The notes under the pieces: generated by a model | Database searches by the model: none | What the model was told of the DNA's origin: nothing | The model's input: the letters and a program-made list of their open reading frames with translations, nothing else | NCBI GenBank assembly: GCA_030390025.1 | Contig: CM059432.1 | Location: 50,098,001 to 50,162,000, forward strand | Source: Squalus acanthias | Lineage: Eukaryota | Direction of reading: 5' to 3' | DNA: 64,000 nt | Program-made: the position numbers and the translations under genes | Shown: positions 1,700-54,806 of the stretch, in pieces | Numbering within the stretch: position 1 is the stretch's first letter | Layout: each line of letters begins with the position of its first letter

Positions 1700-2341
1700 A
1701 CAAAGCTTAACTGGACCAGCTAAATCAACATTGTTGCAATAAGAGCAGAGCAGAAGCTCAGAGGCTTATCTCCTGACCCCTCAAAGCCTCTCCACCATCA
1801 CGAGTGGGGAATGTGATAAAATACTCATCATTTGCCTGGATGGGTGCAGCCTCATCAACACACAAGAAGTTTGACACCATCTAGGACAGAGCAGTTCACG
1901 TGATTGGAGTCCCTACAATGATTCAATATCCACTGCACACCCCCCCCCCCCCCCACGCCCCACACTTCCCTCATCACTGGCACCCTATGGCCGCAGTATG
2001 TACAATCTACAGGATGCTTCGATGTTGCTTCAATGGCATTGGCCACCCCTGTGAACTTTACCAGCAAGAAGGCAAGAGTAGCCATATCATGGGAACCATT
2101 ATCCCCAAGTTCCCCTCCAAGTCACACCATCTTGATTTTGATATATATTGTCACTTTTTTCATCATTACTGGATCTATATCCTGGAATTCATTACCTAAT
2201 AGCATTGTGGGAGTGGCATCACCACAAGGACTGCAGCAGTTCAAGGAGAAGGCTTCAAACTATCTTCTCAGGGCAACAAGAGATGGACAATAATTATGAC
2301 CTTATCAGCATCGCCTACATCCTGAAAACAAATGAAAAAGA
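1700..2341 (+). mobile_element. Old 3' fragment of the tRNA-headed CR1-group LINE family
   Basis: Diverged match to 49760-50430 (MAAVCTIYRM; ccaagttcccctccaagtcac; 3' end catcgcctacatcc...aatgaaaaa). Confidence 0.8.
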
Positions 2342-2546: not shown

Positions 2547-3627
2547 GATAGAATCATAGAATGGTTACAGCACAGTAGGAGGCCATTCAGCCCGTCGAGC
2601 CCGTGCCAGCTCTCTGCAAGAGCACTTCAGCGAGAACCACTCCCCCGCCCTTTCCCCGTAGCCATACAAATCTTTTTCCTTCAGGCAATTATCCAATTCC
2701 CTTTTGAAAGCCATGATTGGATCTGCCTCCACCACCATTTCAGGCAGTGAATTCCAGATCATAACCACTCGCTGCGTAAACAAGTTTTTCCTCATGTCGC
2801 CTTTGAATCCTCTGCCAATCACCTTAAATCTGTGTCTGCTGGTTCTCGACCCTTCCACCAATGGGAACAGTTTCTCTCTATCTACTCTGTCTAGACCCCT
2901 CATGATTTTGAACACCTCTGTCAAATCTCCTCTCAACCTTCTCTGCTCCAAGGAGAACAATCCCAGCTTCTCCAGTCTATCCATGTAACTGAAGTCCCTC
3001 ATCCCTGGAACCATTCTCATAAATCTTTTCTGCACCCTCTCGAAGGCCTTCACATCCTTCCTAAAGTGCAGTGCCCAGAATTGGACACAATACTCCAGTT
3101 GTGGCAGAAACAATGTTTTATAAAGGCTCATCATAACTTCCTTGCTTTTGTACTCTATGCCTCTATTTATAAAGCCTAGGATCCTGTATGCTTTTTTAAC
3201 TGCTTTCTCAACCTGCCCTGCCACCTTTAACAATTTGTGCACATATATCCCCAGGTCTCTCTGTTCCTGCACCCACTTTAGAATTGTACCCTTTAGTTTA
3301 TATTGCCTTTCCTCGTTCTTCCTACCAAAATGTATCACTTGGCACTTTTCCGCATTAAACTTCATCTGCCACGTGTCCGCCCATTCCACCAGCCTGTCTA
3401 TGTCCTCTTGAAATCTATCCCTATCCTCCTCACTGTTCACTATACTTCCAAGTTTTGTGTCATCCTCAAATTTTGAAATAGTGCCCTGTACACCTAAGTC
3501 CAAATCATTAATATATATCAAGAAAAGCAGTGGTCCTAGTACCGACCCCTGGGGAACACCACTGTATACCTTCCACCAGTCCAAAAAACAACCGTTCACC
3601 ACTACTCTCTGTTTCCCGTTTCCTGTC
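2547..3627 (-). mobile_element. 5'-truncated CR1 LINE (RT C-terminal half, open frame)
   Basis: ORF 2565-3716 has GVPQGSVLGP, KFEDD (degenerate FADD), LEYCVQFW, RRLRGDL; (ATTCTATG)-type tail at 2547-2562. The ORF portion 5' of about 3627 is non-CR1 flank. Confidence 0.93.
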
Positions 3628-4144: not shown

Positions 4145-7100
4145 GGGGTCGACATTAACCCTCCCACGACAGGCAGGAGAGGGTCGGGGCGGACGATTCA
4201 GAATTAAAAATCAGGGAACGCGTCCCCAACCCGCCGCATATGTGCCATTCGGCATTTTTACGTTGGTGGGTACCGTGGTGTGTGTGTGTGCCCCATCTTG
4301 GAGAGGCGGAAAACTTCAATATAGTATTTATATCAGGCTCCCACAGTGGAGTTGGGAGCCTGATTTAAATTGAACAGCTGCCAGCCGGGTTTCCCAGAGC
4401 TCGGGGAACCTGGCAGCGAAATGGAGACGGAAGCAGCAGGCTGCAGCAGGTAAGTGCTTTTTATAGCATTCCTTGTGGGTCTGGAGGAGCAGGAGAGCTC
4501 CCTCATCAAGGAAGCCTTCAGAGTCCCTTTTGCCCATTATGGCGTCTCCTCGCTGCCATGATTGGCTGACCACCCCATTCCAACCCCAATCTCCGGCCTG
4601 CCTGATCTTTCTCTCCCTCCCTCGCCATTACTGTTCTTTGATCGCACCCGCCTCCTGCCCCCACCTGACTTTGATCTTTCCAGCCTGTCAATCTGGCTGG
4701 CTGCCAGGTGGGAAACAGAAGAAGAAATTGATAATGAGGTCCTGTAACTGAACCGACTAGGGGGCAAGCAACCTTAGATCTGGTCCTGTGTAACGAGACA
4801 GGATTAATTAAAAATGTCCTAGTAAAGGATCCCCTTGGAATGAGTAACCATAACATGGTTGAATTCCATATTCAATTAGAGGGTGAGAAGGTTGGATCTC
4901 AAACAAGCGTGCTAAGCTTGAATAAAGGAGACTATGAAGGTATGCGAGCGGAATTGAGTAGAGTGGATTGGGAAAATAGATTATAAGTTAAGACGATACA
5001 TGATCAGTGGTGTACATTTAAGGAGTTATTTTACAACTTCCAAAAAAAATGTATTCCACTGAGAAGAAAAGGGTGTAAAAGAAAAGACAGTCATCCGTGG
5101 CTAAGTAAAGAAATTAAGGATAGTATTCAACTAAAAGCAAGGGCTTATAAGGTAGCCAAATCTAGTGGGAGGATAGAGGATTGGGAAAACTTTAAAAGAC
5201 AGCAAAAAATAACAAAAAGATTGATTAAGAAAGGGAAGATAGATTATGAAAGTAAATTAGCAAAAAATATAAAAACAGATAGGAAGAGTTTTTATAGTTA
5301 TATAAAAAGAAAAAGGGTGGCTAAAGTAAAGGTTGGTCCCTTAGAGGATGAGACCAGGAAATTAATGGTGGTAAATATGGAGATGGCAAATACACTGAAT
5401 GAATATTCTGTATCAGTCTTTACAGTAGAGGACACTAAGAATATCCCAACACTGGACAAACAGGGGGCTATAGGGGGGGAGGAGCTAAACACGATCAAAA
5501 TCACTAAGGAAGTGGTACTCGGTAAAATAATGGGACTCAAGGCGGATAAATCACCTGGACCTGATGGCTTACATCCTAGGGTCTTGAGGGAAGTGGCGGT
5601 AGGGATTGTGGATGCATTGGTAATAATTTTCCAAAACTCCCTGGACTCAGCAAAGGTCCCGGCAAACTGGAAAACTGCTAATGTAACACCCTTATTTAAA
5701 AAGGGCAGTAGACAGAAGGCTGGAAACTATAGACTGGTTAGCCTAACATCTGTGGTAGGTAAAATTTTGGAGTCCATTATTAAGGAGACAGTAACGGGAC
5801 ATTTGGATAATCATAATTTAATAGGACAAAGTCAGCATGGTTTTATGAAGGGGAAGTCATGTTTGACAAATTTGCTGGAGTTCGTTGAGGAAGTAGCATA
5901 CAGGGCGGATAAAGGGGAACCAGTGGATGTGGTGTATTTAGACTTCCAAAAGGCATTTGACAAGGTGCCACACAAGAGATTATTGCTTAAGATAAAAAAT
6001 CACGGGATTGGGGGTAATATTCTGGCATGGATAGAGGATTGGCTATCTAACAAAAGGCAGAGAGTTGGGATAAATGGTTCATTCTCAGACTGGCAATCAG
6101 TAACTAGTGGTGTTCCGCAGAGGTCAGTGCTGGGTTCCCAACTCTTTAAAATCTATATTAACGATTTGGAGGAGGGGACCGAATGTAACATATCAAAGTT
6201 TGCAGATGATACTAAGATGGGAGGGAAAGTAGTGAGTGAGGAGGACATAAAAAATCTGCAAGGGGACATAGACAGGCTAAGTAAGTGGGCAGAGATTTGG
6301 CAGATGGAATACAATACTGGAAAGTGTGAGGTTATGCACTTTGGCAGGAAAAATAGTAGAGCAAGTTATTATCTTAATGGCAAGAAACTGGAAAGTACTG
6401 AAGTACAAAGGGATCTGGGGGTCCTGGTGCACGAAACTCAAAAGGTTAGTATGCAGGTGCAGCAAGTGATTAAGAAGGCCAATGGAATGTTGGCTTTCAT
6501 TGCTAGGGGGACAGAATATAAAAATAGGGAGGTATTGCTTCAGTTGTACAAGGTATTGGTGAGACCGCACCTGGAATACTGCATACAGTTTTGGTGTCCA
6601 TACTTAAGAAAAGACATACTTGCTCTCGAGTCAGTACAAAGAAGGTTCACTCGGTTAATCCCGGGGATGAGGGGATGGACATATGAGGAGAGGTTGGGTA
6701 GATTGGGACTCTACTCATTGGAGTTCAGAAGAATGAGAGGCGATTTTATTGAAACATATAAGATTGTGAAGGGGTTGGATCGGGTGGATGCGGGGAGGAT
6801 GTTCCCGATGATGGGTGAAACTAGAACTAGGGGGCATAGTCTTAGAATAAGGGGCTGCTCTTTCAAAACTGAGATGAGAAGGAACTACTTCACTCAGAGG
6901 GTGGTAGGTCCATGGAATATGCTGCCCCAAAAAGCTGTAGAAGCTACATCATTACATAAATTTAAAACAGAAATAGACAGTTTCCTAGAAGTAAAGGGAA
7001 TTAAGGGTTACGGGGAGCGGGCAGGAATTTGGACATGAGTCTAGGTTCGGATCGGTCATGGCCCTGTGGGTAGCGTAGCGGGCCCAGGGGCCGTGTAGCC

Positions 7101-7380
7101 TGATCCTGCTCCTATTTCGTGTGTCCAATTCTGTTAGGTTCAGGAGATGTTTCTGTGATAGTAGATTGGCGGTTAGGATCAGATCAGCCATGATCTTATT
7201 GAATGGCGGAGCAGGCTCGAGGGGCCAATTGGCCTACTCCTGCTCCTATTTCTTATGTTCTTATGTTCTTATGTCCTGCCATTAAATTTGGCAGGAACTC
7301 CGCGTCCCAGGGATTTCCGGGTTTACTCCCACAACCGCACTCCCCCGCACCCTTCCAACCTCCCTGTAAATATTGGGGCC
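4145..7380. mobile_element. MITE (G-rich-repeat family) interrupted by a CR1 insertion
   Basis: 4145-4744 and 7273-7380 match the reverse complement of the two ends of 51085-52184; 3-bp TSD aac (4142-4144, 7381-7383). Confidence 0.75.
4745..7272 (+). mobile_element. 5'-truncated CR1 LINE, same subfamily as 33642-38099
   Basis: 605-aa RT ORF at 5221-7038 nearly identical to ORF2 of the full-length copy; (TTCTTATG)n tail; TSD gtcctg (4739-4744, 7273-7278). Confidence 0.96.
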
Positions 7381-9783: not shown

Positions 9784-10262
9784 GGGAAATGGTAGAATAG
9801 TGGTTATGTTACTGGACTAGTAAACCAGAGGCTGGGACTAATAATCTGAGAGACATGAGTTCAAATCCCACCATGGTAGTTGGAGAATTTAAATTCAGTT
9901 GATTAAATAAATCTGGAAAAATAAAAAGGTAGTATCGGTGATGGGTATTAGTATTGAAACTATTGGACTGTCATTTAAAAAAACACAACTGGTTCACTAA
10001 TGTCCTTCAGGGAAGGAAATCTGCTACCCTTACCCAGTCTGGCCTATATGTGACTACAGACCCACAGCAATGTGGTTGACTCTTAGCTGCCCTCTGAAAT
10101 GGTTTAGCAAGCCACTCAATTGTATCAAAACTGCTACAAAAAACTCTAATCCACATGGTTCAAGAAGGTGGCTCACCACCACCTTCTCAAGGTCATCTCG
10201 GGATGGGCAATAAATGCTGGTCTTGCCAGCAAAACCCACATCCCATGAATGAATAAAAAAAA
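9784..10262 (+). mobile_element. tRNA(Thr-like)-derived SINE sharing both ends with the LINE at 22408-26447
   Basis: A box tagaatagtgg, anticodon-like loop ctAGTaa, B box gagttcaaatcc; body matches the reverse complement of 25270-25535; last ~105 nt match the LINE 3' end. Confidence 0.88.
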
Positions 10263-11247
10263 GTTAGCGAGTCAGAAGGGTTTCCATGGGTGAAACACAG
10301 AACACTAGTGAGAATGTAGGAGCTGGGAGTGGGAGAGATGGAGAGTGACATTCCTCCACGGAGGTTTTAGAAACAACCACTCTCGGTTGAGGAACCTAGG
10401 GACCCAGATTTCTGGAGCCAGTTTTTCTAAAGAGCTATGATTAGGGAGCAATGGAGATAGTATCCATGCATATGGTCAAGATGACCAGCGGGAGCAGTCC
10501 ACTACCTACATCTCCAACTCATAGCAGAAAGTTTCCTATGACCTGAAGAACACTCTGGTGACAATGACAGTCTGGGAGATTTCTGCAGCATCAAGATGCC
10601 AGGAACAGCTTCTAAGAAGATTTGTGGCTTACTGAATGGCGGCTAACAGAGCTGCAATAGATGCTTTGAACAGGGCACTTTTATAGGGCTTCCAAGACCT
10701 GATTGGGACTATTTGGTCTGTGATGACACCAACCAATAGCTTTTCAAAGCTTGTGACCAGTGCCAGTGGACTGCAGAAGGACAGCAACCGTGGGGGAATA
10801 GGAGGAGATTGACCCCAGTGTGAATGCCACCTTCACAACATAAAACAAATGGAAGCAGTGCAGGAAAAAGATTAATCACCTTACTTGGTCAGCCAAGGTA
10901 CAACCCATTGTGACCTTATATTAATGCAATATACCAGCCATGTACAACACTTACAATTCCCTGCCTCTCATATAGGGGCCCAAAATCCTTGGCCGCTTAC
11001 CGCTGGCAGAGCTGCAGTGGAACAGGCTATGCACAATTAATTAAATGATACTAGCAGTGTCTCTAGTGACAGATTGAAATGACTAGACACATAAAGGTTG
11101 AGTGTGGAGATGACTTTTATTGCCACTGGCCTGTGGTAGAACACAGTTGCAGATCTGCTTGCTGCACGTGGTTTAACTCCATTATAGCTTCCCTGGTGAA
11201 TCAAAGCCTTTGCAAACACTGCTGTTCAGAGAAGTAGCATTATGTAC

Positions 11248-14130
11248 ACAACAACAACAACTTATATTTATATAGTGCCTTTAACGTAGTAAAACGTCCC
11301 AAGGTGCTGCACAGGAGTATTATAAGACAAAAAATTTGATACCGAGCCACCTAAGGAGAAATTAGGGCAGGTGACCAAAAGCTTGGTCTAAGAGGTAGGT
11401 TTTAATGAGCGTCTTAAAGGAGGAAAGAGAGGTAGAGAGGTAGAGGCAGGGAATTCCAGAGCTTAGGGCCTAGGCAACAGAAGGCACAGCCACCAATGGT
11501 TGAGTGATTATAATCAGGGATGCTCAATTAGGGCAGAATTAGAGGAGCGCAGATATCTCGGGGGGTTGTGGGGCTGAAGGAGATTACAGAGATAAGGAGG
11601 AGCGAGGCCATGGAGGGGTTTGAAAACAAGGATGAAAATTTTGAAATCGAGGCGCTGCTTAACCGGGAGCCAATGTAGGTCAGCGAGCACAGGGGTGATG
11701 GACGAATGGGACTTGGTGCGAGTTAGGACAGGGGCAGCCGAGTTTTGGATGACCTCAAGTTTACGTAGAGTAGAATGTGGGAGGCCAGCCAGGTGTGCAT
11801 TGGAATAGTCAAGTCTAGAGGTAACAAAGGCATGGATGAGTTTTCAGCAGCAGATGAGCTGAGGCAAGGGCGGAGACGGGTGATGTTATGGAGGTGGAAA
11901 TAGGCGGTCTTAGTTATGCTGTGGATATGTGGTCGGAATCTCACTTCAGGGTCAAATATGACACCAAGGTTGCGAACAGTGTGGTTCAGCCTCAGACAGA
12001 TGTTATATAATAAATACAGGAATGTTATATCCCTGTAACACACACTGTGTTATATAATATATACAGGAGTCAGTGGCTAGAGAATGGAGTTTGTGGTGGG
12101 GACCGAAAACAATGGCTTCAGTCTTCCCAATATTTAATTGGGGAAAATTCCTGCTCATCCACAACTGTATGTTGGACAAGCAGTCTGACAATTTAGAGAC
12201 TGTGGAGGGGTCGAGAGAAGAGGTAGTGAGGTAGAGCTGGGTGTCGTCAGTGTACATATGGAAACTGACGCTGTGTTTTCGGATGATGTCGCCAAGGGGC
12301 AACATGTAGATGAGAAATAGGAGGGGGCCAAAGATAGATTATTGGGGGACACCAGAGGTAACGATGCGGAAGCAGGAAGAGAAACCGTTGCAGGTGATTC
12401 TCTGACTACAATTAGATAGATAAGAATGGAACCAGGCGAGTGCAGTCCCACCCAGCTGAACGGCGGTGAAAAGGCGTTGGAGAAGGATGGAGTGGTCAAC
12501 CGTGTTAAAGGCTGCAAACAAGTCAAGAAGGACGAGGAGGGTTAGTTTACTTTTGTCACAGTCACAAAGGATGTCATTTGTGACTTTGATGAGAGCTGTT
12601 TTGTTACTGTGGCAAGGGCGGAAACCTGATTGGAGGGATTCAAAAATGGAATTGCAGGAAAGATGGGCACGGATTTGGGAGGCAACAACACATTCAAGGA
12701 CTTTGGAGAGGAAAGGGAGGTTAGAGATGGGGTGGTAGTTTGCAAGGACGGAGGGGTCAAGGGTTGTTTCTTTGAGGAGAGGGGTGATGATGGCAGATTT
12801 GAGGGAGAGGGGGACAGTACCTGAGGAGAGAGAACCGTTAACAATGTCAGCTAACATGGGAGCCAGAAAAGGAAGTTGAGTGGTCAACAGTTTGGTGGAA
12901 ATAGGGTCGAGGGAGCAGGAAGTGGGTCTCATGGACAAGATGAGCGCGGAGAGGTCATGAGGGCAGATCGGAGAGAAACTGGAGAAAGATGTGAATTCAG
13001 GGCTAGAGCAGGGAGGAACCTTAGAGGAAGTTTGGCCCGGTTGGCTAAGGGAAGGAAGGGAAGTGGCAGAGGCAGCTGAACGGATGGTCTCAATCATAGA
13101 GACAAAGAAGTCCATGAGCTTCTCACACTTGTTATCGGAGGTGAGGGTGGAGGAGACGGGGAGAGGGGTTTAAGAAGATGGTTAGCGGTAGAGAATAGGA
13201 GCTGGGGTTTATCTTTGCATTCCAGAATGATTCTGGAATAGTGAGCAATTTTGGCAGATGAGAGCAGGACCCGATAATGCTTTATGTGGTCCAGCCAGAT
13301 CTGGCGGTGAATGGCTAAACCAGTTGTCCGCCATATCCGTTCAAGTCTGCGTCCCTTGGACTTAAGGGAGCGAAGATGAGAGCCGTACCAGGGGGAACGG
13401 TCAGGGTGAGAGAGAGTAATTGTTTTAGTAGGGACTAGGGCATCAAAGGTGGTGGTGAGGGTGTGGTTGAGCAGATCGGTATCTGCAGAAATGTCATGAT
13501 GAATGGAGGACCAAAGGCTGGACAGTTGGGATTTCATAAGTGCAGTTGTATGTAAGAGAGTTGGGAGAGAGTTTTTTCCAGGGGCGGACACAGAAGGAAG
13601 TAGGTTTGGGGGGGGTGGAAGTGGATGTGGGTGGAGAGCGATACGAGGAAGTGGTCAGAGATGGCCTCATCTGTGATTGACACAATGGGAGTCGCGAGGC
13701 CACAAGAGATGGCAAGGTTGAGGGGGTGGCTGTGAATATGGGTTGGGGAGTTTACATGGAGGGAGAGATTAAGGGAGGATAGGAGGCTAGTGAACTCAGA
13801 GGAGAGAGAGCATAATGAATTGAGATGGAGGTTGAAATCACCGAGGATGAGTAGTCGTTCGGTGCAAAGGCTGAGGGAGGAGAACAGTGGAGATATCTCA
13901 GTAATAACATTTTTATGGTACTTGGGTGGGCAGTAGAGAACCAGAATTTTAAATGAGGTGAGAGGGGTGGAATAAGGTGAGATGCTAAAAGGAGGAGAAA
14001 CTGCCGGAGGAATAGAGGGACAGACCAAGGTGTGATTTGGTGATGAGAGCCACACCACCACCACGGCGGTCTGAGCGGGGCAAGTGGTGGAAGGTATAGC
14101 CAGGTGGGGAGGCTTCATTTAAGGGTAGGA
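11248..14130 (-). mobile_element. L2 LINE, 5'-truncated within the endonuclease, frameshifted
   Basis: Fragments GYTFHHLPRSDRRGGGVAL, LLILGDFNLH, ISDHFLV, QSGFRPCHS, LLDLFAAFNTVDH, SGVPQ, HMYTDDTQLY; (TTG)n tail. Confidence 0.93.
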
Positions 14131-21890: not shown

Positions 21891-22407
21891 ATCTACCTGA
21901 ACAGAACATCTTAGATCATCTTGATACAGTAGTGCACAGTGGTTTGGCAAATGTGACTGAAGTGACCAGAGGAAGATGGGAACGACCCACTGCCGTACAG
22001 ATTCAGCGTTGTGCTCCTTGTTGAGCTGGGCTATGAATCTACGGGCAGTAGCTGGAATAACTGCCCAGTAGCCTCTGGGAAAGTGCAGCTTTCAACCACA
22101 ATGTGGAGAATTTTGGTTTGGGCACTGAACGGGTGCAATATTAATGATTAATGCAGCACCCGTCCAACAGGGCAATTGGGAGGCTCAAACCACCTTCAGG
22201 TTTGGGCCTCATTAACATTTTGGCAGCGAACTGCGGCCAAGATGGGAACTCTGCCGCAGTTCACCGGTTTCCTGCTATTATGCCGCAGGATTTCCAGGGC
22301 TTCTCCTAATGGATGGAACTTGATGAGCATCTATAATAACTATAGGCCCAGTGTTCAAATCTAAATTGTTATTTTGTGCTTTGCGGCATGGGGCGCCCAT
22401 GATGGAC

Positions 22408-25400
22408 TTTTTTTTAAATTCGTTCTTGGGATGTGGGCCTCGCTGGCATGGCCAGCATTTATTACCCATCCCTAAATGCCCTTGAGAAGGTGGTTGTGAG
22501 CCACCTTCTTGAAACGCTGCAGTCCTTGTGGTGAAGGTACTCCCATAATGCTGTTAGGGAGTGAGTTCCAGGATTTCGACCCAGTGACGATGAAGGATCG
22601 GCGATATATTTCCAAGTCAGGATTGTGTGTAACTTGGAGGGGAACTTACAGGTGATGGTGTTCCCATGTGCCTGCTGCCCTTGTCCTTCTAGGTGGTAGA
22701 GGCCGCGGGTTTGGGAGGTGCTGTCGAAGAAGCCTTGGCGAGTTGCACAGTGCATCTTGTAGATGGTACACACTGCAGCCATGGTACGCCGGTGGTGGAG
22801 GGAGTGAATGTTTAAGGTGGTGGGTGGGGTGCCGATCAAGTGGGCTGCTTTGACCGGGATGGTGTCAAGCTTCTTGAGTGTTGTTGGAGCTGCACTCATC
22901 CAGGTAAGTGGAGAGTATACCATCACACTCCTGACTTGTGCCTTGTAGATGGTGGAAAAGCTTTGGGGAGTCAGGAGGTGAGACACTCACTGCAGAATAC
23001 CCAGCCTCTGACCTGCTCTTGAAGCCACAGTATTTATTTGGCTGGTCCAGTTATGTTTCTGGTCAATGCTGACCCCCAAGATGTTGATGGTGGGGGATTC
23101 GGCAATGGTAATGTTGTTGAATGTCAAGGGGCAGTGGTTAGACTCTCTTTTGTTGGAGATAGTCATTGCCTGACACTTGTGTAGTGCGAATGTTTGTTGC
23201 CACTTATCAGCCCAAGCTTGAATGTTGTCCAGGTCTTGCTGCATGCAGGCATGGACTGCGTCATTATCTGGGGAGTTGCAATCATTAGTGAACATCCCCA
23301 CTTCAGACCTTATGATGGAGGGAAGGTCATTGAAGAAACAGCTGAAGATGGCTGAGCCTAGGACACTGCCCTGAGGATCTCCTGCAGCGATTACCTGGGG
23401 CTGAGTAGATTGACCTCCAACAACCACAACCATCTTCCTTTCTGCTTGTGACTTTAATTATACTAGGGCTCCTTGATGCTACACTCGGTCAAATGCTGCC
23501 TTGATGTCAAGGGCAGTCACTCTCACCTCACCTCTGGAATTCAGCTCTTATGTCCAAGTTTGGACCAAGGTTGTAATGAGGTCGGGAGCCGAGTGGTCCT
23601 GGCAGAACTCAAACTGAGCATCGGTGAGCAGGTTATTGGTGAGTAAGTGCCACTTGATAGCACTGTCGACGACACCTTCCATCACTTTGCTGATGATTGA
23701 GAGTAGACTGATGGGGTGGTAATTGGCCGGATTGGATTTGTCCTGATTTTAGTGGACAGGACATACCTGGGCAGTTTTCCACATTGTCGGGTAGATGCCA
23801 GTGTTGTAGCTGTACTGGAACAGCTTGGCTTGAGGCATGGCTAGTTCTGGAGTGCAAGTCTTCAGCACGACAGCCAGGATGTTGTCAGGGCCCATAGCCT
23901 TTGCTGTATCCAGTGCACTCAGCCGTTTCTTGATATCACATGGAGTGAATCGAATTGGCTGAAAACTGACTTCTGTGATGGTGGGGACGTCAGGAGGAGG
24001 CCAATATGGATCATCCACTCGGCACTTCTGGCTGGAGATGGTTGCAAAATCTTCAGCCTTGTCCTTTGCACTCACGTGCTGGGCTCCACCATCACTGAGG
24101 ATGGGGATATTCATGGAGCCTCCTCCTCCTGTTAGTTGTTTAATGGTCCACCACCATTCACGACTGGATGTGGCAGGACTGCAGAGCTTTGATCTGATCA
24201 GTTGATTGTGGGATTGCTCAACTCTGTCTATAGCATGCTGCTTTCACTGTTTAGCATGCATATAGTCCTGTGTTGCAGCTTTACCAGGTTGGCACCTCAT
24301 TTTTAGGTACGCCTAGTGCTGCTCCTGGCATGCTCTTCTGCACTCATTGAACCAGTTCTGGTCCCCTGGCTTGATGGTAATGGTAGAGTAAGTGATATGC
24401 CAGGCGATGAGGTTGCAGATTGTGGTGGAGTACAATCCTGCTGCTGCTGATGGCTCACAGCGCCTCATGGATGCCCAATTTTGAGCTGCTAGATCTGTTC
24501 TGAATCTATTCCATTTAGCATGGTGGCAGTGCCACACAATACAATGGAGGGTGTCCTCAGTGTGAAGATGGTTCTTTGTCTCCACAAGGACTGTGCGGTG
24601 GTCACTGCTACCAATGCTGTCATGGACAGATGCATCTGCGATAGTTAGATTGGTGAGGACGAGGTCAAGTAGGTTTTTCACTCGTGTTGGTTCTCTCACC
24701 ACCTGCCGCAGGCCCAATCTGGCAGCTATGTCCTTCAGGACTCGGCCAGCTCGGTCAGTAGTGCTGCTACCGAGCCACTCTTGGTGATGGACATTGAAGT
24801 CCCCTGACCCAGAGTACATTCTGTGCCCATGCTATCCTCAGTGCTTCTTCCAAGTGGTGTTCTTCTATGAAAGTGTACTGATTCATCAGCTGAGGGAGAG
24901 CAGTAGGTGATAATTAGCAGGAGGTTTCCTTGCTCATGCTTGACCTGAAGCCATGAGACTTCATGGGGCCACTCCCTCCCAACTGTATATCACTGTGCTG
25001 CCACCCCTGGTGGGTCTGTCCTGCCAGTGGGACAGGACATACCCAGGGATGGTGATGGAGGAGTCTGGGACATTGGCTGAAAGGTATGATTCTGTGAGTA
25101 TGACTATGTCAGGCTGTAGCTTGACTAGTCTGTGGGACAGCTCTCCCAATTTTGATACAAGTTCCCAGATGTTAGTGTGGAGGACTTTGCAGGGTCGACT
25201 GGGCTGGGTGTGCTGGTGTCGTGTCTGAAGTCGGTGTGGGGTGGTCCGTCCGATTTTATTCTTATTATTTCTTTCTGTAATGGTTTGTTACAAATGAGTG
25301 GCTTGCTAGGCTATTTCAGCGGGCAGTTAAGAGTTAACCACATTGCTGTGGGTCTGGAGTCACGTATAGGCCAGATCGGGTAAGGACGGCAGATTTCCTT

Positions 25401-26447
25401 CCCTAAAGGTCATTAGTGAACCAGATGGGTTTTTATGACCCCATTACTGATACTAGCTTTTTATTCCAGATTTATTTAATTAACTGAATTTAAACTCCCC
25501 AGCTGCCATGATGGAATTTGAACTCACGTCTCTGGCTCAGTGAATGGGCGAGAACATGGCAGATGGAATATAATGTGGATAAATGTGAAGTTATCCACTT
25601 TGGTAGAAAAAACAGAAAGGCAGAGTATTTCCTAAATGGTGAAAGATTGGGGAACGCAGATGCTCAAAGGGACCTGGATGTCCTTGTACATGAGTCACTG
25701 AAAGTGAATGTGCAGGTGCAGCAAGCCATTAGGAAGGCAAATGGTATGCTGGCCTTCATTACAAGAGGATTTGAGTACAGGAGTAAAGAAGTCTTACTCC
25801 AATTATATAGGGCCTTGGTGAGACCACACCTGGAGTACTATGTACAATTTTGGTCTCCTTACCTAAGGAAGGATATACTTGCCATAGAGGGAGTGCAACG
25901 AAGGTTCACGAGATTGATTCCTGGGATGGCGGGACTGTCGTATGAGAAGAGATTGAGTAAACTAGGCCTGTATTCTCTTGAATTCAGCAGAATGAGAGGG
26001 GATCTCATTGAAGCATACAAAATGATTACAGGGCTTGATAGGATGGATGCTGGGAGAATGTTTCCCTTGGCTGGGGAGTCTAGAACCAGGAGCCACAGCC
26101 TCAGGATAAAGGGTAGGCCATTCAGGACTGAGATGAGAAGATATTTCTTCACACAGAGGGTGATGAATCTTTGGAATTCTCTACCCCAGAGGGCTGTGGA
26201 GGCTCAGTTATTGGGTATATTCAAAACAGAAGTCGATAGATTTCTGACTAGTAAAGGCATCAAGGGATATGGCGATAGGGCCGGTGAATGGAGTTGAGGC
26301 AGAAGATCAGCCATGATCTCATTGAATGGCGGAGCAGGCTCGAAGGGCTGAATGGCCTACTCCTGCTCCTATTTCTTATGTTCTTATGTTCTTATCTAGG
26401 CCTCTGGATTACTAGTTCAGTAACATAAACACTATGCTACCATTCCC
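22408..26447 (-). mobile_element. CR1-group LINE with tRNA-derived 5' head, decayed EN-RT frame and no ORF1; head interrupted by a CR1
   Basis: Head at 26396-26447 and 25270-25535; EN motifs QPDIVILTES, GDFNVHH, LDLVLT, SSDH; RT motifs KAMGPDNI, PQGSVLG, WADKWQ, YKAQVRS; 3' end gccagcga...cccacatccc plus A-rich tail. Confidence 0.88.
25536..26395 (+). mobile_element. 5'-truncated CR1 inserted into the tRNA head
   Basis: ORF 25518-26297 (WQMEYNVDKC, RPHLEYYVQFW, RMRGDLIE); (TTCTTATG)n tail. Confidence 0.95.
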
Positions 26448-33078: not shown

Positions 33079-33880
33079 CTCTTCAACAGTATGTAGTGTC
33101 TGGCAATTTCTACTTCTAGCATTGCCAGTCGGTGTACTCTTCTGTCGGGACGCCTTTGCAAGATGCCCGGTTTTCTTGCAGTAGAAACACTCTGCCTTCA
33201 CATATGAACAGCTTTGAGCGATGTGTTGTCAGAGGCACCGATAGTACAACTTCAATGCATTGTTACCTTGGCCAGTTGCTGAGGCTTTGGGGCCCAACTG
33301 CCTTTTACTTTTAGCCTGAAACTGATTCACCTCGGTTGTCTGACGACTGGAAATGGCACGGAACTCACAGCAGTATCGGTCGGTCATATCCATCGACATA
33401 GCTGTCTGACAAGCTAAGTCACAAGTCAAATTACAGGTTGTCAATAATTTATTTCTGATACGTTCATTTTTCAACCCACAAACAAAGCGGTCATGCAAAG
33501 CTCGGTCCTGAATGTTTCCGAAATGACAGTGAATGGATAGCTTTTTTAAAGCTACAATGTACTCACTGATACCCTCGTCAGTTAATTGATCATGTGTTCC
33601 AAAATGATCACTTTCAGCAATTTCGAGGGTTCAGGACTGTACATAAGAACATAAGAACATAAGAAATAGGAGCAGGAGTAGGCCAATCGGCCCCTCGAGC
33701 CTGCTCCGCCATTCAATAAGATCATGGCTGATCTGATCCTAACCGCCAATCTACTATCTATCACAGAACCATCTCCTGCATCTAACAGAATTGCACACAC
33801 GAAATAGGAGCAGAATCAGGCTACACAGTCCCTGGGCCCGCTCCACTACCCACAGGGCCATGACCGATCCGAACCTAGAC

Positions 33881-36832
33881 TCATGTCCAAATTCCTGCCC
33901 GCTCCCCGTAACCCTTAATGCCCTTTACTTCTAGGAAACTGTCTATTTCTGTTTTAAATTTAATTAATGTTGTAGCTTCTACAGCTTTTTGTGGCAGCAT
34001 ATTCCATGGACCTACCACCCTCTGAGTGAAGTAGTTCCTCCTCATCTCAGTTTTGAAAGAGCAGCCCCTTATTCTAAGACTATGTCCCCTAGTTCTCGTC
34101 TCACCCGTCATCGGGAACATCCTCCCCGCATCCACCCGATCCAACCCCTTCACAATCTTATATGTTTCAATAAGATCGCCTCTCATTCTTCTGAACTCCA
34201 ATGAGTAGAGTCCCAATCTACCCAACCTCTCCTCATATGACCACCCCCTCATCCCCGGGATTAACCGAGTGAACCTTTTTTGCACTGCCTCGAGAGCAAG
34301 GATGTCTTTCCTTAAGTAAGGACACCAAAACTGTATGCAGTATTCCAGGTGCGGTCTCACCAATACCTTGTACAACTGAAGCAATACCTCCCTATTTTTA
34401 TATTCTATCCCCCTAGCAATGAAAGCCAACATTCCATTTGCCTTCTTAATCACTTGCTGCACCTGCATACTAACCTTTTGAGTTTCGTGCACCAGGACCC
34501 CCAGATCCCTTTGCACTTCAGTACTCTCCAGTTTCTTGCCATTAAGATAATAAATTGCTCTAGGATTTTTCCTGCCAAAGTGCATCACCTCACACTTTCC
34601 AGTGTTGTATTCCATCTGCCAAATCTCTGCCCACTTACTTAGCCTGTCTATGTCCCCTTGCAGGTTTTTTATGTCCTCCTCACTCACTACTTTCCCTCCC
34701 ATCTTTGTATCATCTGCAAATTTTGATATGTTACACTTGGTCCCTTCCTCCAAATCGTTAATATAGATTGTGAAGAGTTGGGGACCCAGCACTGACCCCT
34801 GTGGAACACCACTAGTTACTGATTGCCAGTCTGAGAATGAACCATTTATCCCAACTCTTTGCTTTCTGTTAGATAGCCAATCCTCTATCCATGCCAGAAT
34901 ATTACCCCCAATCCCGTGATTTTTTACCTTAAGCAATAATCTTTTGTGTGGCACCTTGTCAAATGCCTTTTGGAAGTCTAAATACACTACGTCCACTGGT
35001 TCCCCTTTATCCACTCTATATGTTACTTCCTCAAAGAACTCCAGCAAATTTGTCAAACATGACTTCCCCTTCGTAAAACCATGCTGACTTTGTCCTATTA
35101 AATTATGATTATCCAAATGTCCTGTTACTGTTTCCTTAATAATGGACTCCAAAATTTTACCTACCACAGATGTTAGGCTAACCGGTCTATAGTTACCAGC
35201 CTTCTGTCTACTGCCCTTTTTAAATAAGGGTGTTACATTAGCAGTTTTCCAGTCTGCCGGGACCTTAGCGGAATCCAGGGAGTTTTGAAAAATTATTACC
35301 AATGCATCTACAATCCCTACCGCCACTTCCTTCAAGACTCTAGGATGTAAGCCATCAGGTCCAGGTGATTTATCCGCCTTGAGTCCCATTATTTTACCGA
35401 GTACCACTTCCTTAGTGATTTTGATCGTGTTTAGCTCCTCTCCCCCTATAGCCCCCTGTTTGTCCAGTGTTGGGATATTCTTAGTGTCCTCTACTGTAAA
35501 GACTGATACAAAATATTCATTCAGTGTTTTTGCCATCTCCATATTTCCCACCATTAATTTCCCGGTCTCATCCTCTAAGGGACCAACATTTACTTTAGCC
35601 ACCCTTTTTCTTTTTATATAACTATAAAAACTCTTACTATCTGTTTTTATATTTTTTGCTAATTTACTTTCATAATCTATCTTCCCTTTCTTAATCAATC
35701 TTTTTGTTATTTTTTGCTGCCTTTTAAAGTTTTCCCAATCCTCTGTCCTCCCACTAGATTTCGCTACCTTATATGCCCTTGTTTTTAGTCGAATACTATC
35801 CTTAATTTCTTTACTTAGCCACGGATGACTGTCCTTTCTTTTACACCCTTTTCTTTTCAGTGGAATATATTTTTTTTGGAAGTTGTAAAATAACTCCTTG
35901 AATGTACACCACTGATCATGTGTCGTCTTACCCTTTAATCTATTTTCCCAATCCACTCTACTCAATTCCGCTCGCATACCTTCATAGTCTCCTTTATTCA
36001 AGCTTAGCACGCTTGTTTGAGATCCAACCTTCTCACCCTCTAATTGAATATGGAATTCAACCATGTTATGGTCACTCATTCCAAGGGGATCCTTTACTAG
36101 GACATTTTTAATTAATCCTGTCTCGTTACACAGGACCAGATCTAAGGTTGCTTGCCCCCTGGTCGGTTCAGTTACATACTGCTCAAGAAACCCATCCCTA
36201 ATACACTCAATGAACTCATCCTCAAGGCAGCCCTGCCCCATTTGATTTGTCCAATTAATATGATAGTTAAAATCCCCCATAATTATAGATGTTCCCTTAT
36301 TACATGCCTCAACTATTTCCTGATTGATACTCCGTCCAATAGAGTTGCAACTGTTCGGAGGCCTATAGACTACGCCCACTAATGTTTTTTTCCCCTTATT
36401 ATTCCTTATCTCCACCCAAACTGTTTCATTATCATGATTTTTTGACCCAATATCATTACTCTGTATTACAGTGATTCCTTCCTTTATTAACATAGCCACC
36501 CCACCTCCCCTTCCTTCCTGCCTGTCCTTCCTGATCGTTAAATAACCTGGTATGTTTAATTCCCAGGCATTGTCACCCTGCAGCCATGTTTCTGTAATGG
36601 CCACAATATCATAACCATATGTAGTTATTTGTGCCATTAACTCGTCTATTTTGTTACGAATGCTACGTGCATTCAGATAGAGAACTTTCAAATATGCTTT
36701 GTGGCACTTAGTTCCTGCTTTTTCACTTTTTACCAGTTTACCTTTTACTCCACACACTCTGTCCCTTCCTGCCACGCTCTGATTTGTGATTCCCCTACTG
36801 CTACCTATGTCTATGACCCTCTCTGTTGTCAT
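33881..36832 (-). CDS. CR1 ORF2: AP endonuclease and reverse transcriptase (983 aa)
   Basis: YLNARS, ITETW, GDFN, LDLV, SDH; QHGF, YLDFQKAFD, GVPQGSVLGP, FADD. Confidence 0.97.
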   Translation of the reverse strand: MTTERVIDIGSSRGITNQSVAGRDRVCGVKGKLVKSEKAGTKCHKAYLKVLYLNARSIRNKIDELMAQITTYGYDIVAITETWLQGDNAWELNIPGYLTIRKDRQEGRGGGVAMLIKEGITVIQSNDIGSKNHDNETVWVEIRNNKGKKTLVGVVYRPPNSCNSIGRSINQEIVEACNKGTSIIMGDFNYHINWTNQMGQGCLEDEFIECIRDGFLEQYVTEPTRGQATLDLVLCNETGLIKNVLVKDPLGMSDHNMVEFHIQLEGEKVGSQTSVLSLNKGDYEGMRAELSRVDWENRLKGKTTHDQWCTFKELFYNFQKKYIPLKRKGCKRKDSHPWLSKEIKDSIRLKTRAYKVAKSSGRTEDWENFKRQQKITKRLIKKGKIDYESKLAKNIKTDSKSFYSYIKRKRVAKVNVGPLEDETGKLMVGNMEMAKTLNEYFVSVFTVEDTKNIPTLDKQGAIGGEELNTIKITKEVVLGKIMGLKADKSPGPDGLHPRVLKEVAVGIVDALVIIFQNSLDSAKVPADWKTANVTPLFKKGSRQKAGNYRPVSLTSVVGKILESIIKETVTGHLDNHNLIGQSQHGFTKGKSCLTNLLEFFEEVTYRVDKGEPVDVVYLDFQKAFDKVPHKRLLLKVKNHGIGGNILAWIEDWLSNRKQRVGINGSFSDWQSVTSGVPQGSVLGPQLFTIYINDLEEGTKCNISKFADDTKMGGKVVSEEDIKNLQGDIDRLSKWAEIWQMEYNTGKCEVMHFGRKNPRAIYYLNGKKLESTEVQRDLGVLVHETQKVSMQVQQVIKKANGMLAFIARGIEYKNREVLLQLYKVLVRPHLEYCIQFWCPYLRKDILALEAVQKRFTRLIPGMRGWSYEERLGRLGLYSLEFRRMRGDLIETYKIVKGLDRVDAGRMFPMTGETRTRGHSLRIRGCSFKTEMRRNYFTQRVVGPWNMLPQKAVEATTLIKFKTEIDSFLEVKGIKGYGERAGIWT

Positions 36833-38693: not shown

Positions 38694-39249
38694 ATCGGGC
38701 CGGAGCATCGGGTGAGGGGGCAAGGGAGAGAAATGTCCACCAAGTAAAACTTTAAGGGGATATGTTTTGCACACACACACTCTCTCATGAGGAAGTCTTT
38801 GGCTGATGAGTACTTTCTGATATTGGTGAGCAGCACTATATATAAATGTGTATACATAAAAAATATCAAAGGTGACAGTCAAGGACAAAAGAGATCAATC
38901 GAATCATGTTCCCACCGTGCACAGTCTATTTCCTCCAAGCCTAGGTCCCAAACACAGCAATGACTAAGAAACTCCCAATGGCTTTGCAACTGCACAATTG
39001 TTGAGATGGCGGCCTTGGATGCACAATTTTTTTTTAAATTCCGAAACAAAAAGATATCTGCAGCTTGTTTGCTCTAAATAAAGGGATAGCCGATAGGAAC
39101 AGGCCGATCCCTTTTAGCAACAGCTGACATAAGACATCATTTTGATCGCTGTGTATTACTTACGTGGCTGCAATCTGAATAATGTCAGCAGCACTCACAC
39201 TTACTACATTCAATGTAATCGCTGACTGTGGTCCACTTCACCTCACAGA

Positions 39250-39960
39250 ACGGGGCCGGAGCATTGGGGGGGAAGGAGAGGAGATCGGGGCCAAAACATT
39301 GGGAGGGAGGGAGAGAAGATTGGGGCCAGAGCATTGGGGGTGGGGGGGGAAGAGAGGAGATGGGGGCCAGAACATTGGGAGAATGGAGAGAAGACTGGGG
39401 CCGGAGCATCGGCGGGGGGGAGGGAGAGAAGATCAGGGCCAAAGCATCGGGGGGAGGGTGGGGGGGAGAATGGAGAGAAGATCAGGGCCGGAGCATCAGG
39501 TGGGGGGAGGGAGAGAAGACCGGGGCCGGAGCATCAGCGGGGGGGGTGGAGGGAGAGAAGATCGGGGCCGGAGCATCGGGGGGGGGTGGAGGGAGAGAAG
39601 ATCAGGGCCGGAGCATCAGGTGGGGGGAGGGAGAGAAGACCGGGGCCGGAGCATCGGCGGGGGGGTGGAGGGAGAGAAGATCGGGGCCGGAGCATCGGGG
39701 GGGGGGGGGGGGTGAGAGAAGATCGGGGCCAGAGCATCGGGGTGGAGGAAAGCAATGACCGGGGCTGGAGCATCGGCGGGGGTGGGGTGGGATGGGAGTT
39801 ATGGAGGGAGAGAAACATGCACCCGCACTGGAGGATCGGGGTTGGGGGGAGGGGGGGAAGCATCGGGGCCGGCCTGAGGATCATAAGTGGTGGGGGGGGG
39901 AGCATTGGGGTCTGAGGATCATCGATGGGTGGCCGGTGGAGTCTGGGAAGGCCATCGGGG
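39250..39960 (+). repeat. G-rich minisatellite (~38-40-bp unit ggggccggagcatcggggggggtggagggagagaagatc) inside a MITE-like element ending near 40323
   Basis: More than ten visible tandem units with variable G-run length. Confidence 0.92.
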
Positions 39961-47244: not shown

Positions 47245-47865
47245 CGTTGCTTCAGCCCATCTGCTGCTGAAACCCTCATCCCTGCTTTAGTTACCTCCAG
47301 TCTCGAGTATTCCAATGCTCTTCTGGCCAGCCTTCCATCTTCCACCCTCCATAAACTTAAGCTCATCCAAAACTCTGCTGCCTGTATCCTAACTTGTACA
47401 AGTCTCAGTCACCCATCACCCCTGTGCTCGCTGACCTACATTGGCTCCAGGTGCAGCAATGCCTCTACTTTAAGATGCTCGTCTTCGTGTTCAAATGCCT
47501 CCACAGCCTCACTTCATATCTCTGTAACCTCCTCCAGCTCTACAACCCTCTGAGAACCCTGCGTTCTCCGACTCTGGCCTCTTGTGCATCCCCCCTCTTC
47601 AATCGCCCCATGATTGGTTGTTGTTGCTTCAGCCGTCTAGGCCCTAAGCTCTGGAATTCTCTCCCTAAAACTCTCTGCCTCTCCACCTCTATCTCCTCCT
47701 TTAAGACGCTCCTCAAAACCTACCTCTTTGACCAAGCTTTTGATCACCTGTCCTAATATCTCCTTCTTTGGCTCAGTGTCAATTGTTGTCCGATTACACT
47801 TCCATTATGTATCTTGGAACGTTTTACTATGTTAAAGGCTTTATATAAATGCGAATAGTTGCTAT
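47245..47865 (+). mobile_element. L2 3' fragment
   Basis: PITPVLADLHWL...LWNSLP...SSFKTLLKTYLF; L2-type tail. Confidence 0.9.
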
Positions 47866-48132
47866 TGTGAGGATTTGAATTGTACGTTGTAGCTTGAAGG
47901 GTGTTTAACTGTGGTATGGGTATGCATGAGATACAATGGAAGAGCTGTAAGTTTATACAAGGGCTTGGCATGGGTGAGAAGTAAATCTGGGACATATTGG
48001 CAGATGTGGAACATATTGACAGATGTACTGCTCACCCATGCCAGGCTCTCACTTGCAATCTTGGGCTGCCTATCCAATCTATCTGATACATGGTACTGTT
48101 GGGTAATAGCTTCTCATGCATCTCTTCCCAGT

Positions 48133-48219
48133 GTTTTTTTTTTATTCATTCATGAGATGTGGGCATCGCTGGCAAGATCAGCATTTATTGCCCATCCCTA
48201 GTTGCCCTTGAGAAGGTGA
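48133..48219 (-). mobile_element. 3' end of the tRNA-headed LINE/SINE family
   Basis: Reverse complement matches 10180-10262. Confidence 0.8.
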
Positions 48220-49249: not shown

Positions 49250-50631
49250 CCCATTGACATCAGGCAGCATCTGACCGAGTGTGGCATCAAGGAGCCCTTG
49301 TAAAACTGAAGTCAATGGGAATCTGGGGAAAACTCTCCACTGGCTGGAGTCATACCTGAGCACAAAGAAGATGGTTGTGCTGGTTGAAGGTCAATCATCA
49401 CAGCCCCAGGACATCACTGCAGGAGTTCCTCAGGGCAGTGTCCTAGGCCCAACCATCTTCAGCTGCTTCATCACTGACCTTCCCTCTAACATAAGGTCAG
49501 AAATGGAGATGTTCGCTGATGACTGCACAGTGTTCAGTGCCATTCACAACTCCTCAGATAATGAAGCAGTCGATGCCCGCACGCAACAACACCTGGACGA
49601 CGTTCAGGCTTGGGCTGATAAGTGGCAGGTAACATTCGCGCCACAGAAGTGCCAGGCAATGACTTTCTCCAACAAGCGAGAGTCTAACCACCGCCCCTTG
49701 ACATTCAACTGCTTACCATCGCCGAATCCCCACCATCAACATCCTGGGGGTCACCATGACCAGCCACATAAATACTGTGGCAACAAGAGCAGGTCAGGGG
49801 CTAGGTATTCTGTGGCGAGTGTCTCACCTCCTGACTCTCCAAAGCCTTTCCACCATCTACAAGGCACAATTACATTTCCCACCTGGCAGCCAACCAAATT
49901 GACAAGTAAGGAGTGTGATGGAATACTCTCCACTTGCCTGGATGAGTGCAGCTCCAACAACGCTCAAGAAGCTCGACACCATCCAGGACAAAGCAGCCCA
50001 CTTGATTGGCATCCCATCCACCACCTTAAACATTCACTCCCTCCACCACTGGCGTATCGTGGCTGCAGTGTGTACCATCTACAAGATGCACTGCAGCAAC
50101 TCACCAAGGCTTCTTCGGCAGCACCTCCCAAACCCACGACCTCTTCCACCTAGAAGGACAAGGGCAGCAGGCACATGGGAACACCACCACCTCCAAGTTC
50201 CCCTCCAAGTCACACACCATCCTGACTTGGAAATATATTGCCGATCCTTCATCGTCACTGGATCAAAATCCTGGAACTCCCTCCCTAACAGCACTGTGGG
50301 AGTAACTTCACCACAAGGACTGCAGTGGTTCAAGAAGGCGGCTCACCACCACCTTCTCAAGGGCAATTAGGGATGGGCAATAAATACTGGTCTTGCCAGC
50401 GACGCCCACATCCCAGGAACTAATTTTTAAAAAGTCCATCATGGGCGCCCTATGCCGCAAAGCACAAAATAACAATTTAGATTTGAACACTGGGCCTATA
50501 GTTATTATAGATGCCCATTAGGGGAAGCCCTGGAAATCCTGGGGCATACTAGCAGGAAACCGGTGAGCTGCGGCAATAAATGCTGACCTTGCCAGCGACG
50601 CCCACATCCCACAAAAATGAATTTAAAAAAA
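49250..50631 (+). mobile_element. 5'-truncated copy of the tRNA-headed LINE family with a 3' extension and a second 3' end
   Basis: GVPQGSVLGP, MFADD, WADKWQ; 3' end near 50433, extension 50434-50575, repeated 3' end 50572-50631. Confidence 0.9.
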
Positions 50632-54214: not shown

Positions 54215-54690
54215 GTAATGTAGCCATTTTGAAACCAGGTAAAGACCCTACAAGCTCAAAGAACATCAGACAAATTTTTCTATTGTGTTTCACGAATAAG
54301 TTATTCGAATGCCTCATTTTGAACCAGTTCTCCCCCCATGTGGAACAGCTTACCCCAGAACAGGCAGGTTGCCACCTTGGAAAATCACGCACAAACCAAC
54401 TACTTAATCTGACCCAGCATACTGAAGATGGATTTGAACAAGGCCTAATAACTGGAGCTGTCTTTGTTGAGCTGTCAGCTGCCTATGACACTGTTAATCA
54501 CCACATACCTGTGCAGAAGGTTTTTAACATGACGAAGGATGCTTGTCCGAACTTTATTAGCGAATCACCGTTTTTTTCAAGGAACAATGTGGAAAAAAAA
54601 GTCAACAGCGTGGGCAATGGAATGGGCTCCCACAAGGTAGTGTGCTTGCGTCAATGCTATTCAAATACTAATGACTAACCCATTCATCCT
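54215..54690 (+). pseudogene. Vingi/Ingi-like LINE reverse transcriptase fragment
   Basis: ILKPGKDP...PEQAG...GKS...QLLNLTQHTEDGFE...TGAVFVELSAAYDTVNH. Confidence 0.75.
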
Positions 54691-54806
54691 GGTAGCCTTG
54701 TGATAGGGAAGAGTGTGAAGATAGGATACAATATATATATACTAATGACTAACCCATTCATCCTGGTAGCCTTGTGATAGGGGAGAGTGTGAAGATAGGA
54801 TACAAT
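54665..54806 (+). repeat. 68-bp direct duplication separated by atatat
   Basis: 54665-54732 and 54739-54806, one mismatch. Confidence 0.95.

Follow-up and report, generated by a model that had tools for sequence, protein, structure and literature searches.

The window analysed here, a stretch of 64,000 nucleotides (nt) of Squalus acanthias (GCA_030390025.1, contig CM059432.1, positions 50,098,001 to 50,162,000 of the forward strand), contains on its minus strand, at 22408–26447, a decayed full-length copy of a LINE (long interspersed element) that begins with a tRNA-type head. The copy belongs to a 3.3-kb family encoding an APE endonuclease (EN) and a reverse transcriptase (RT), and we regard this family, head to A-tail, as real with near certainty. 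It moved as one head-to-A-tail unit, its EN-RT open reading frame (ORF) is under purifying selection, and it repeatedly gave rise to short interspersed elements (SINEs) by internal deletion. We propose that it represents an autonomous, ORF1-less APE-RT LINE family of sharks that follows a SINE-type expression route.

According to this proposal, RNA polymerase III (Pol III) would transcribe the whole 3.3 kb from internal A and B boxes, T-runs having been purged from the sense strand so that Pol III does not terminate. The uncapped RNA would be translated from a structure in the body resembling the internal ribosome entry site that dicistroviruses have in their intergenic region (IGR-IRES). An AGC stem-loop would pair with an in-frame GCU and fix the frame, and the next codon (Thr) would be decoded first, with neither AUG nor initiator tRNA. 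The protein would copy the LINE RNA by target-primed reverse transcription (TPRT), the established LINE mechanism. Cap-independent translation would have arisen first, allowing the capture of a tRNA promoter in the shark lineage. That Pol III transcription and anticodon-mimic initiation operate together is slightly favoured by the comparisons below. The parts of the window copy are as follows.

22408–26447, minus strand: decayed full-length copy of the tRNA-headed, ORF1-less APE-RT LINE of the 3.3-kb family, 92.9% identical to the family consensus
26396–26447, minus strand: 5′ part of the tRNA-derived head (start GGGAA, A-box, first anticodon arm)
26439–26429, minus strand: A-box, TAGCATAGTGT
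26415–26409, minus strand: loop of the first anticodon arm, CTAGTAA (AGT; tRNA-Thr-like by eye)
25536–26395, plus strand: 3′ fragment of a CR1-type LINE inserted in the head, 70–76% identical to other CR1 copies of the window
25513–25525, minus strand: B-box, as in internal Pol III promoters, fitting the consensus GWTCRANNC
25320–25512, minus strand: non-coding spacer followed by the structured body, where the putative IRES would have its upstream domains
25294–25319, minus strand: anticodon-arm mimic, a stem closing a loop of 7 nt (CTAGCAA) in which AGC occupies positions 3–5
25279–25281, minus strand: site at which the consensus (336–338) has the in-frame GCT codon mimic, ATT by decay in this copy
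25192–25278, minus strand: K/R-rich basic coding leader, AUG-less, in the EN frame
24590–25191, minus strand: APE endonuclease domain, decayed and frameshifted (Pfam PF14529/PF03372 on copy L076; consensus motifs)
23070–23730, minus strand: RT domain, decayed, limits approximate (Pfam RVT_1 on copy L074, E 4e-37)
22408–22520, minus strand: 3′ end common with the SINE (final codons, stop, untranslated region (UTR) of about 55 nt, A-run), no target-site duplication

Compared with the consensus, about 10 nt of the head are missing at the CR1 insertion point. The decayed EN-RT frame stops at TAG 22474–22472, 55 nt ahead of the A-run. An earlier sequence-only reading of this DNA had described along the minus strand an A-box, a CTAGTAA loop, the CR1 at 25536–26395, a B-box, a body and a decayed EN-RT frame, and all of these are present. 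It had also placed the endonuclease closely after the body, at about 80 nt. The proximity holds, and the distance is about 90–100 nt, since the body extends to about 25284 and the first endonuclease strand lies at 25191.

Recurrence, coding capacity and partner SINE

A body–EN junction query was run against the 3.7-Gb genome, only the best 40 matches per search being scored. All 40 scored matches of this query, one of them the window itself, cover the junction at 88–91% identity; its 6823 first-look candidates mix SINE-only and EN-only matches and are not a copy number. Two further queries were blind to the head. Among 29 other loci found with EN alone, 16 reach the tRNA head, 10 stop within the head or body and 3 within the ORF, and for the 29 loci of a mid-ORF query the corresponding counts are 9, 7 and 13. 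No foreign sequence abutting the 5′ end is common to two of these 58 loci. Distinct copies spanning consensus 290–520 begin at nt 1–3 in 44 of 107 cases, and at nt 1 exactly in 38, in a set partly chosen by junction queries.

The copies are dispersed and 5′-truncated, with a fixed 3′ end carrying an A-tail and no long terminal repeats, as in APE-type LINEs. Target-site matches are at most 0–5 nt long in the ten full-length copies tested. One copy, L085, breaks a CR1 3′ end exactly, from the head through the A-run; its clean position inside the CR1 indicates that the unit moves whole.

It is very improbable that the 5′ part of a SINE and a 5′-truncated LINE form a chimera spread in trans, or are chance neighbours, the true master having a conventional 5′ UTR and ORF1. 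Template switching produces such chimeras (PMC5499810), and rare longer masters could escape when only the best 40 matches per search are scored. However, none of the 58 loci shows another shared 5′ extension, and the ORF is intact and bears the mark of purifying selection. The junction, moreover, occurs in two age classes (L281, 72%; L287, 74%), and in a whale-shark (Rhincodon typus) gene model, P0025, body-derived residues are fused to EN. The chimera and chance-neighbour explanation is largely refuted, and the recurrence of the junction and the absence of ORF1, both anticipated by the sequence-only reading, are borne out: every copy examined begins at the head or is truncated inside the element, and none of the 58 loci has another 5′ UTR or an ORF1.

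A majority consensus of 3315 nt was built from 41 copies (40 fetched plus the window copy; 91–97% identity). It contains a single intact ORF, an EN-RT frame of 973 codons from nt 330, with the APE and RT domains in one frame according to the Pfam matches on L076 and L074. The 329 nt between the 5′ end and the ORF hold no upstream ORF1 of the canonical two-ORF LINE. Seven in-frame stops precede the ORF, the last ones at 309 and 327, and its first Met is residue 287, past the endonuclease. Among 68 recurrent non-CpG variants, 43 are synonymous, compared with an expected 24%; the other frames give 12/68 and 9/68. This excess implies that the source elements needed the protein. No 2A motif (NPGP) occurs in the family consensus, and comparison of the protein with the PDB returned human L1 ORF2p only (E 6e-11).

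The suggested non-autonomous partner at 9784–10262 proved to be a SINE matching both LINE ends with the middle deleted:

9785–10262, plus strand: partner SINE, corresponding to consensus nt 1–353 and 3208–3313 (LINE with internal deletion)

Of 30 loci fetched with this SINE, 29 are SINEs and one is a LINE. The SINE consensus (27 rows from loci chosen by likeness to one copy, two rows having been dropped for neighbouring repeats) is 98–99% identical to the LINE ends. The 5′ breakpoints fall at nt 338–346 in 25/29, so that the codon mimic is retained, and the 3′ breakpoints are scattered over 3173–3208. The SINEs retain the opening and closing codons of the ORF as well as the whole putative IRES, and the presence of these codons sets the polarity from LINE to SINE.

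An older SINE subfamily (L251–L280, about 80–86% to the main consensus) belongs to the same lineage, as do older LINE copies (67–75%; L281, L287, L304 and window 1703–2339 on the plus strand). A lone 85-nt tail of the LINE family lies at 48134–48218 (minus strand). LINE pieces are also found within shark gene models of Heterodontus francisci (P0205, P0152) and Rhincodon typus (P0017, P0020, P0025). These models, one of them named as a CWC25 homolog, are probably annotation artefacts.

Near-identical words of the LINE family are present in sequencing runs of six organisms. Runs X19 (record: coral metagenome) and X18 (record: metagenome), compared with L066:730–3980, each give more than 3000 contigs, which span the whole element at 80–99% and share variants absent from run X17. 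They reflect either horizontal transfer or contamination. Raw-read run X22 yielded 151 reads, 91% of which continue into unlike sequence, and three RNA-labelled runs consist of contigs. A coral SINE has a similar body and tail.

The tRNA-type head and probable Pol III transcription

The A and B boxes stand at the 5′ end, as in SINE2 elements, and are intact in both subfamilies. The partner at 9785–10262 is also short and non-coding, as SINE2 elements are, whereas the LINE is 3.3 kb long with 973 codons. In the window, ARAGORN called no tRNA gene, and on the head of the partner SINE Rfam gave only a sub-threshold tRNA match (E 4.2). The head was consequently called tRNA-derived on its boxes and arms, read by eye. 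The interpretation of the sequence-only reading, a protein-coding element under a SINE-type promoter, is supported: the junction recurs, copies extending further 5′ into a conventional UTR and ORF1 were not found, and the purged T-runs and the AUG-less ORF with its candidate anticodon mimic fit the mechanism it predicted. The family head carries a tandemly duplicated anticodon arm (consensus 27–66; window 26396–26420 and 9810–9850). The oldest copy, L281, has a simpler head with one anticodon arm.

Pol III terminates at T-runs, and depletion of T-runs is therefore a mark expected of a long Pol III transcript. The 3300 nt of the sense strand contain no run of four T (T4) and seven runs of three (T3), compared with 38–51 three-base runs each of A, C and G. 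The observed/expected ratio of T3 in the ORF is 0.31. In metagenome relatives of at least 2 kb (62 of 80), the ratio never falls below 0.79 and its median is 1.21; it ranges from 0.78 to 1.27 in five CR1 stretches of the same genome and is 1.02 in the headless relative L111. Pieces of the older headed subfamily have ratios of 0.45 (L287), 0.17 (L304) and 0.76 (L281).

Three observations temper this argument. The absence of T4 is weak evidence when taken alone, with P(0) of 0.11 for synonymous shuffling and 0.20 for a dinucleotide model (looser models give 0.017 and 0.011). The signal is a general depletion of TT (0.71), which may have another cause. Finally, the old family fragment at 1703–2339 (plus strand) lacks TT depletion (TT 1.05). 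Taking both sides together, Pol III probably transcribes the LINE, as judged from boxes and base composition.

The other possibility is that RNA polymerase II (Pol II) makes the RNA, by host read-through or from a promoter within the head or body. The head would then be a captured passenger and the poverty in T would have another origin, while the anticodon mimic could still be used. LINEs are generally Pol II transcripts (PMC5786205), L111 and a second relative, L165, have the mimic without any tRNA head, and the lack of T4 alone is insignificant under the strictest null models. We nevertheless find Pol II transcription unlikely: the 5′ end is sharp at the head (38/107 at nt 1), the A and B boxes are both intact in the two subfamilies, T-run depletion is confined to headed lineages and not seen in L111, CR1 or the 62 relatives, and SINEs with the same head spread independently.

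The AUG-less frame and the AGC hairpin

Immediately ahead of the ORF, the consensus has a hairpin whose loop of 7 nt reads CTAGCAA; the AGC in the middle is able to pair with a GCT that lies in frame, 21 nt past the loop. Two features of an IGR-IRES are found here by sequence and comparison, namely an anticodon-like stem-loop with an in-frame triplet (pseudoknot I, PKI) and an ORF start devoid of AUG. The leader opens Ala-Thr-Lys. From consensus 336 to the endonuclease the sequence has the character of a coding region: of the 67 length changes located between GCT and EN, 43 are multiples of three, compared with 4/41 in the spacer, 5/26 in the body and 0/22 in EN. Near-cognate codons before EN are limited to ACG339 and AAG354, and in 47/107 copies position 341 carries A (ACA).

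L111, the top-scoring metagenome relative of the shark LINE, and L165 both have an 11–12 bp stem of wholly different sequence, a 7-nt loop with AGC, and an in-frame GCT 23–24 nt further on. They are the only AGC-loop cases among seven canonical-loop matches in the 80 metagenome loci scanned, and the L111 frame is open for 967 codons from its GCT. Back-translation was applied to five relatives, chosen by eye, whose predicted proteins reach far enough upstream. In P0033, P0183 and P0176, stems of 11, 12 and 8 bp are possible, with an AGC loop 20–23 nt before an in-frame Ala. These stems were equalled in 0, 6 and 27 of 1000 shuffles, respectively, and 8 bp was reached at 9 of 638 other Ala positions. 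In a 7-row alignment, 60 of 69 cells pair. RNAalifold on nine rows recovered the AGC hairpin, with a two-sided change in 1 of 31 pairs only, and one compensatory pair distinguishes the two subfamilies, at consensus 192/264.

Several results count against the use of this hairpin as an anticodon mimic. The stem of the main family failed the stem scan, having four contiguous pairs followed by an A-C mismatch; that position is G-C in 20/22 copies of the older SINE subfamily. The commonest leader indels (−3 and −12) sit on short repeats, where slippage could yield multiples of three without selection, and leader variants are synonymous in only 4/9 cases (1/9 in each other frame). The evidence from P0033, P0183 and P0176 is compatibility at the protein level, not DNA, in cases picked by eye. 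P0191 fits with an AAC loop only, and the motif of P0135 is apparently out of frame. An in-frame upstream AUG occurs in P0033, P0176 and P0191, and an out-of-frame AUG in L111. The 60/69 covariation comes down essentially to a single contrast, that of the shark family with L111/L165, and the rows in which it was counted also served to draw the structure. Folding of the body was no better than that of shuffled sequences (z −0.22), Rfam matched the body to no IRES, and no equivalents of PKII/PKIII, SLIV, SLV or L1.1 were identified in it. On balance, the loop and its in-frame partner make anticodon-mimic initiation of translation the reading we lean towards, with less confidence than for Pol III transcription.

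Alternatively, a Pol III RNA might be translated from another start: the near-cognate ACG339, an upstream out-of-frame AUG (274 or 358) with −1 frameshifting, or stop read-through. The hairpin would then serve TPRT, packaging or stability. An alternative frame is indeed open from AUG274 past the EN start, an AUG is present at 358–360 in the alternative frame in 31/101 copies, and the full IGR architecture was not found in the body. AUG274, however, is ACG in 12/25 older SINE copies, and ACG339 is ACA in the 47 copies mentioned above and in L111/L165. Leader variants favour the main frame (4/9 synonymous versus 1/9 in the alternative frame), and the loop and the in-frame GCT are retained together despite turnover of the stem. 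Such a start has, in our estimate, a low probability, and anticodon-mimic initiation remains our preferred reading.

An initial pseudoknot idea, in which AAACC paired with GGTT and GCT was the first decoded codon, was dropped in favour of the AGC-loop model. At the 5′ end, Rfam gave no match to a hepatitis delta virus (HDV)-like ribozyme, no dedicated ribozyme search being made, and there is no internal cluster of 5′ ends. The body motif had no match in prokaryote and viral collections, and protein scans of these collections gave no confirmed hit. The body (consensus 205–230; window 25385–25410) weakly resembles a 5′ UTR motif of RTE/Ingi printed in the Kojima 2018 supplement.

No tRNA head or body was matched by blastn in the 80 metagenome relatives, in which relaxed ARAGORN calls are scattered away from the 5′ ends. 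One relative is named from a bony fish, Leuciscus chuanchicus. The mimic occurs in L111 and L165, both devoid of a tRNA head, and the T-runs of L111 are normal, which suggests that the mimic is older than the head. In a quick tree, the shark RT groups loosely with L111, apart from CR1 of the same genome; this grouping with L111 is weakly supported (SH-aLRT 83), which also limits the case. The family differs from CR1 in this RT position, judged against the CR1 copies of the genome rather than named clade references, and in having an A-tail instead of a microsatellite tail. In headless relatives (L111:430–660, L165:365–500; P0033, P0135, P0176, P0191) the 5′ UTR is short and structured, and upstream of the AGC hairpin it has a conserved motif; this is a candidate upstream IRES domain or ribozyme. 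Many distant relatives, including P0037, P0065, P0081, P0087, P0117 and P0139, carry a 2A-like NPGP before the endonuclease, which is the other strategy that Luke et al. describe.

Other repeats of the window and comparison with known systems

A second, composite copy of the family lies elsewhere in the window:

49251–50631, plus strand: 5′-truncated family copy (49251–50424), then about 150 nt of the 3′ flank of the 22408–26447 element (50425–50571), then a second tail (50572–50631)

The 3′ flank of the element (22252–22407) recurs once among the scored genome matches, at 50425–50571, and downstream of the element T4 first occurs at a distance of 546 nt. The coding part of the daughter copy (49251–50424) has only three non-CpG variants in common with the 22408–26447 copy, which makes the daughter a chimera or a conversion product. 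It probably arose by read-through transduction, a transcript from the 22408–26447 locus being joined by template switching, or by conversion.

Two CR1 copies, at 4743–7274 and 33641–36176, lie in inverted orientation and match at 96% over 2.5 kb; their open frames have 683 and 764 codons. They represent a young subfamily whose nesting with the LINE family is contemporaneous and in both directions (the 22408–26447 locus and L085). Pieces of another, L2-like LINE lie at 11244–13016 and 47247–47869 (30% protein identity to the tRNA-headed family), and self-comparison of the window revealed tandem repeat arrays at 39247–39902 and 54665–54806.

We advance more tentatively, and with slightly less than even confidence, a broader reading. 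The element would be a vertebrate LINE that Pol III transcribes over its whole length and that is translated from a factor-free, tRNA-mimicking IRES of dicistrovirus IGR type but non-viral, in a lineage reaching bony fish and marine hosts; the SINE body would be a ribosome-binding remnant of the IRES that may let SINE RNA capture nascent LINE protein. If true, this would break the working rule that a LINE is a Pol II messenger and a Pol III retroelement is non-coding. A compact tRNA promoter with an IRES and a single 3-kb ORF would also show a way for Pol III transcripts to yield protein in a vertebrate. It would also give the conserved SINE body a testable function, a long-open question. The RTE/Ingi 5′ UTRs may merit the same search for anticodon mimics.

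Tail-only shark SINE/LINE pairs and bipartite derivatives are covered by a literature that includes PMC5499810, PMC5786205, PMC7245038, PMC4824008, PMC3747384 and PMC10468316. In the literature searched we found neither a coding LINE with a tRNA head nor a LINE with a PKI-type mimic; the consensus may already be present in Repbase, Dfam or some original papers. The SacSINE1 (Deu)/L2-2_CM and HE1 (V-SINE)/HER1 pairs of cartilaginous fishes likewise combine a tRNA head, a body and a tail shared with a LINE (PMC5499810, PMC3747384). The accessible parts of these papers describe homology of the tail only, and the comparison was made without the SacSINE1 and HE1 sequences themselves. Searching the printed rows of three SINE supplements for four body motifs gave no match to Deu, Meta, V, CORE or UCON3, no alignment being computed. 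By eye, the body is unlike the printed Deu rows, so that the label of a Deu-domain SacSINE1 was dropped, and identity as a Meta, UCON3, V or CORE domain SINE was rejected, as it matches none of the printed rows.

In the dicistrovirus IGR-IRES, PKI mimics an anticodon-codon pair and translation begins at the next, non-AUG codon (PMC4132737). The shark element resembles it in its anticodon-like loop and in-frame triplet, variable linker, non-AUG start and K/R-rich leader, and differs in being a retrotransposon, in using GCU rather than the CCU of IAPV, in having 3–4 pairs instead of 5, and in giving no Rfam match (PMC4132737). Luke et al. 2013 (PMC3894237) mention IGR IRESs in non-LTR elements as no more than a possibility, a suggestion that our reading, if true, answers in testable form.

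ORF1-less LINEs of the CR1/L2 group with 2A (PMC3894237) belong to the same broad group and have a single APE-RT ORF; the shark LINE differs from them in lacking NPGP and AUG and in its Pol III-type head. R2 and L1Tc/Ingi have a single ORF, like the shark LINE, and uncapped RNA; an IRES and cap-independent translation have been proposed for them, and a tRNA-like structure for L1Tc (PMC3414825, PMC3383444). In contrast to the shark LINE, whose 5′ ends lie at the tRNA head with no second cluster within the body, these elements are released by self-cleavage of Pol I or Pol II transcripts by an HDV-like ribozyme.

Close parallels to the shark LINE and its SINEs are RTE with Bov-B/Bov-A/Bov-tA, Vingi, Ingi/RIME and R2 with its SIDEs, in which short elements likewise derive from the ends of ORF1-less LINEs by recurrent internal deletion (PMC5786205, PMC3414825). 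In the available text of Kojima 2018, only RTE, Ingi, Vingi and R2 are given as makers of bipartite derivatives (PMC5786205). In those systems only the SINE bears the tRNA head, and Pol II or Pol I is assumed to transcribe the LINE. The shark coding LINE itself begins with the head, and its SINE is therefore a pure deletion product, a direct route of SINE birth by deletion alone.

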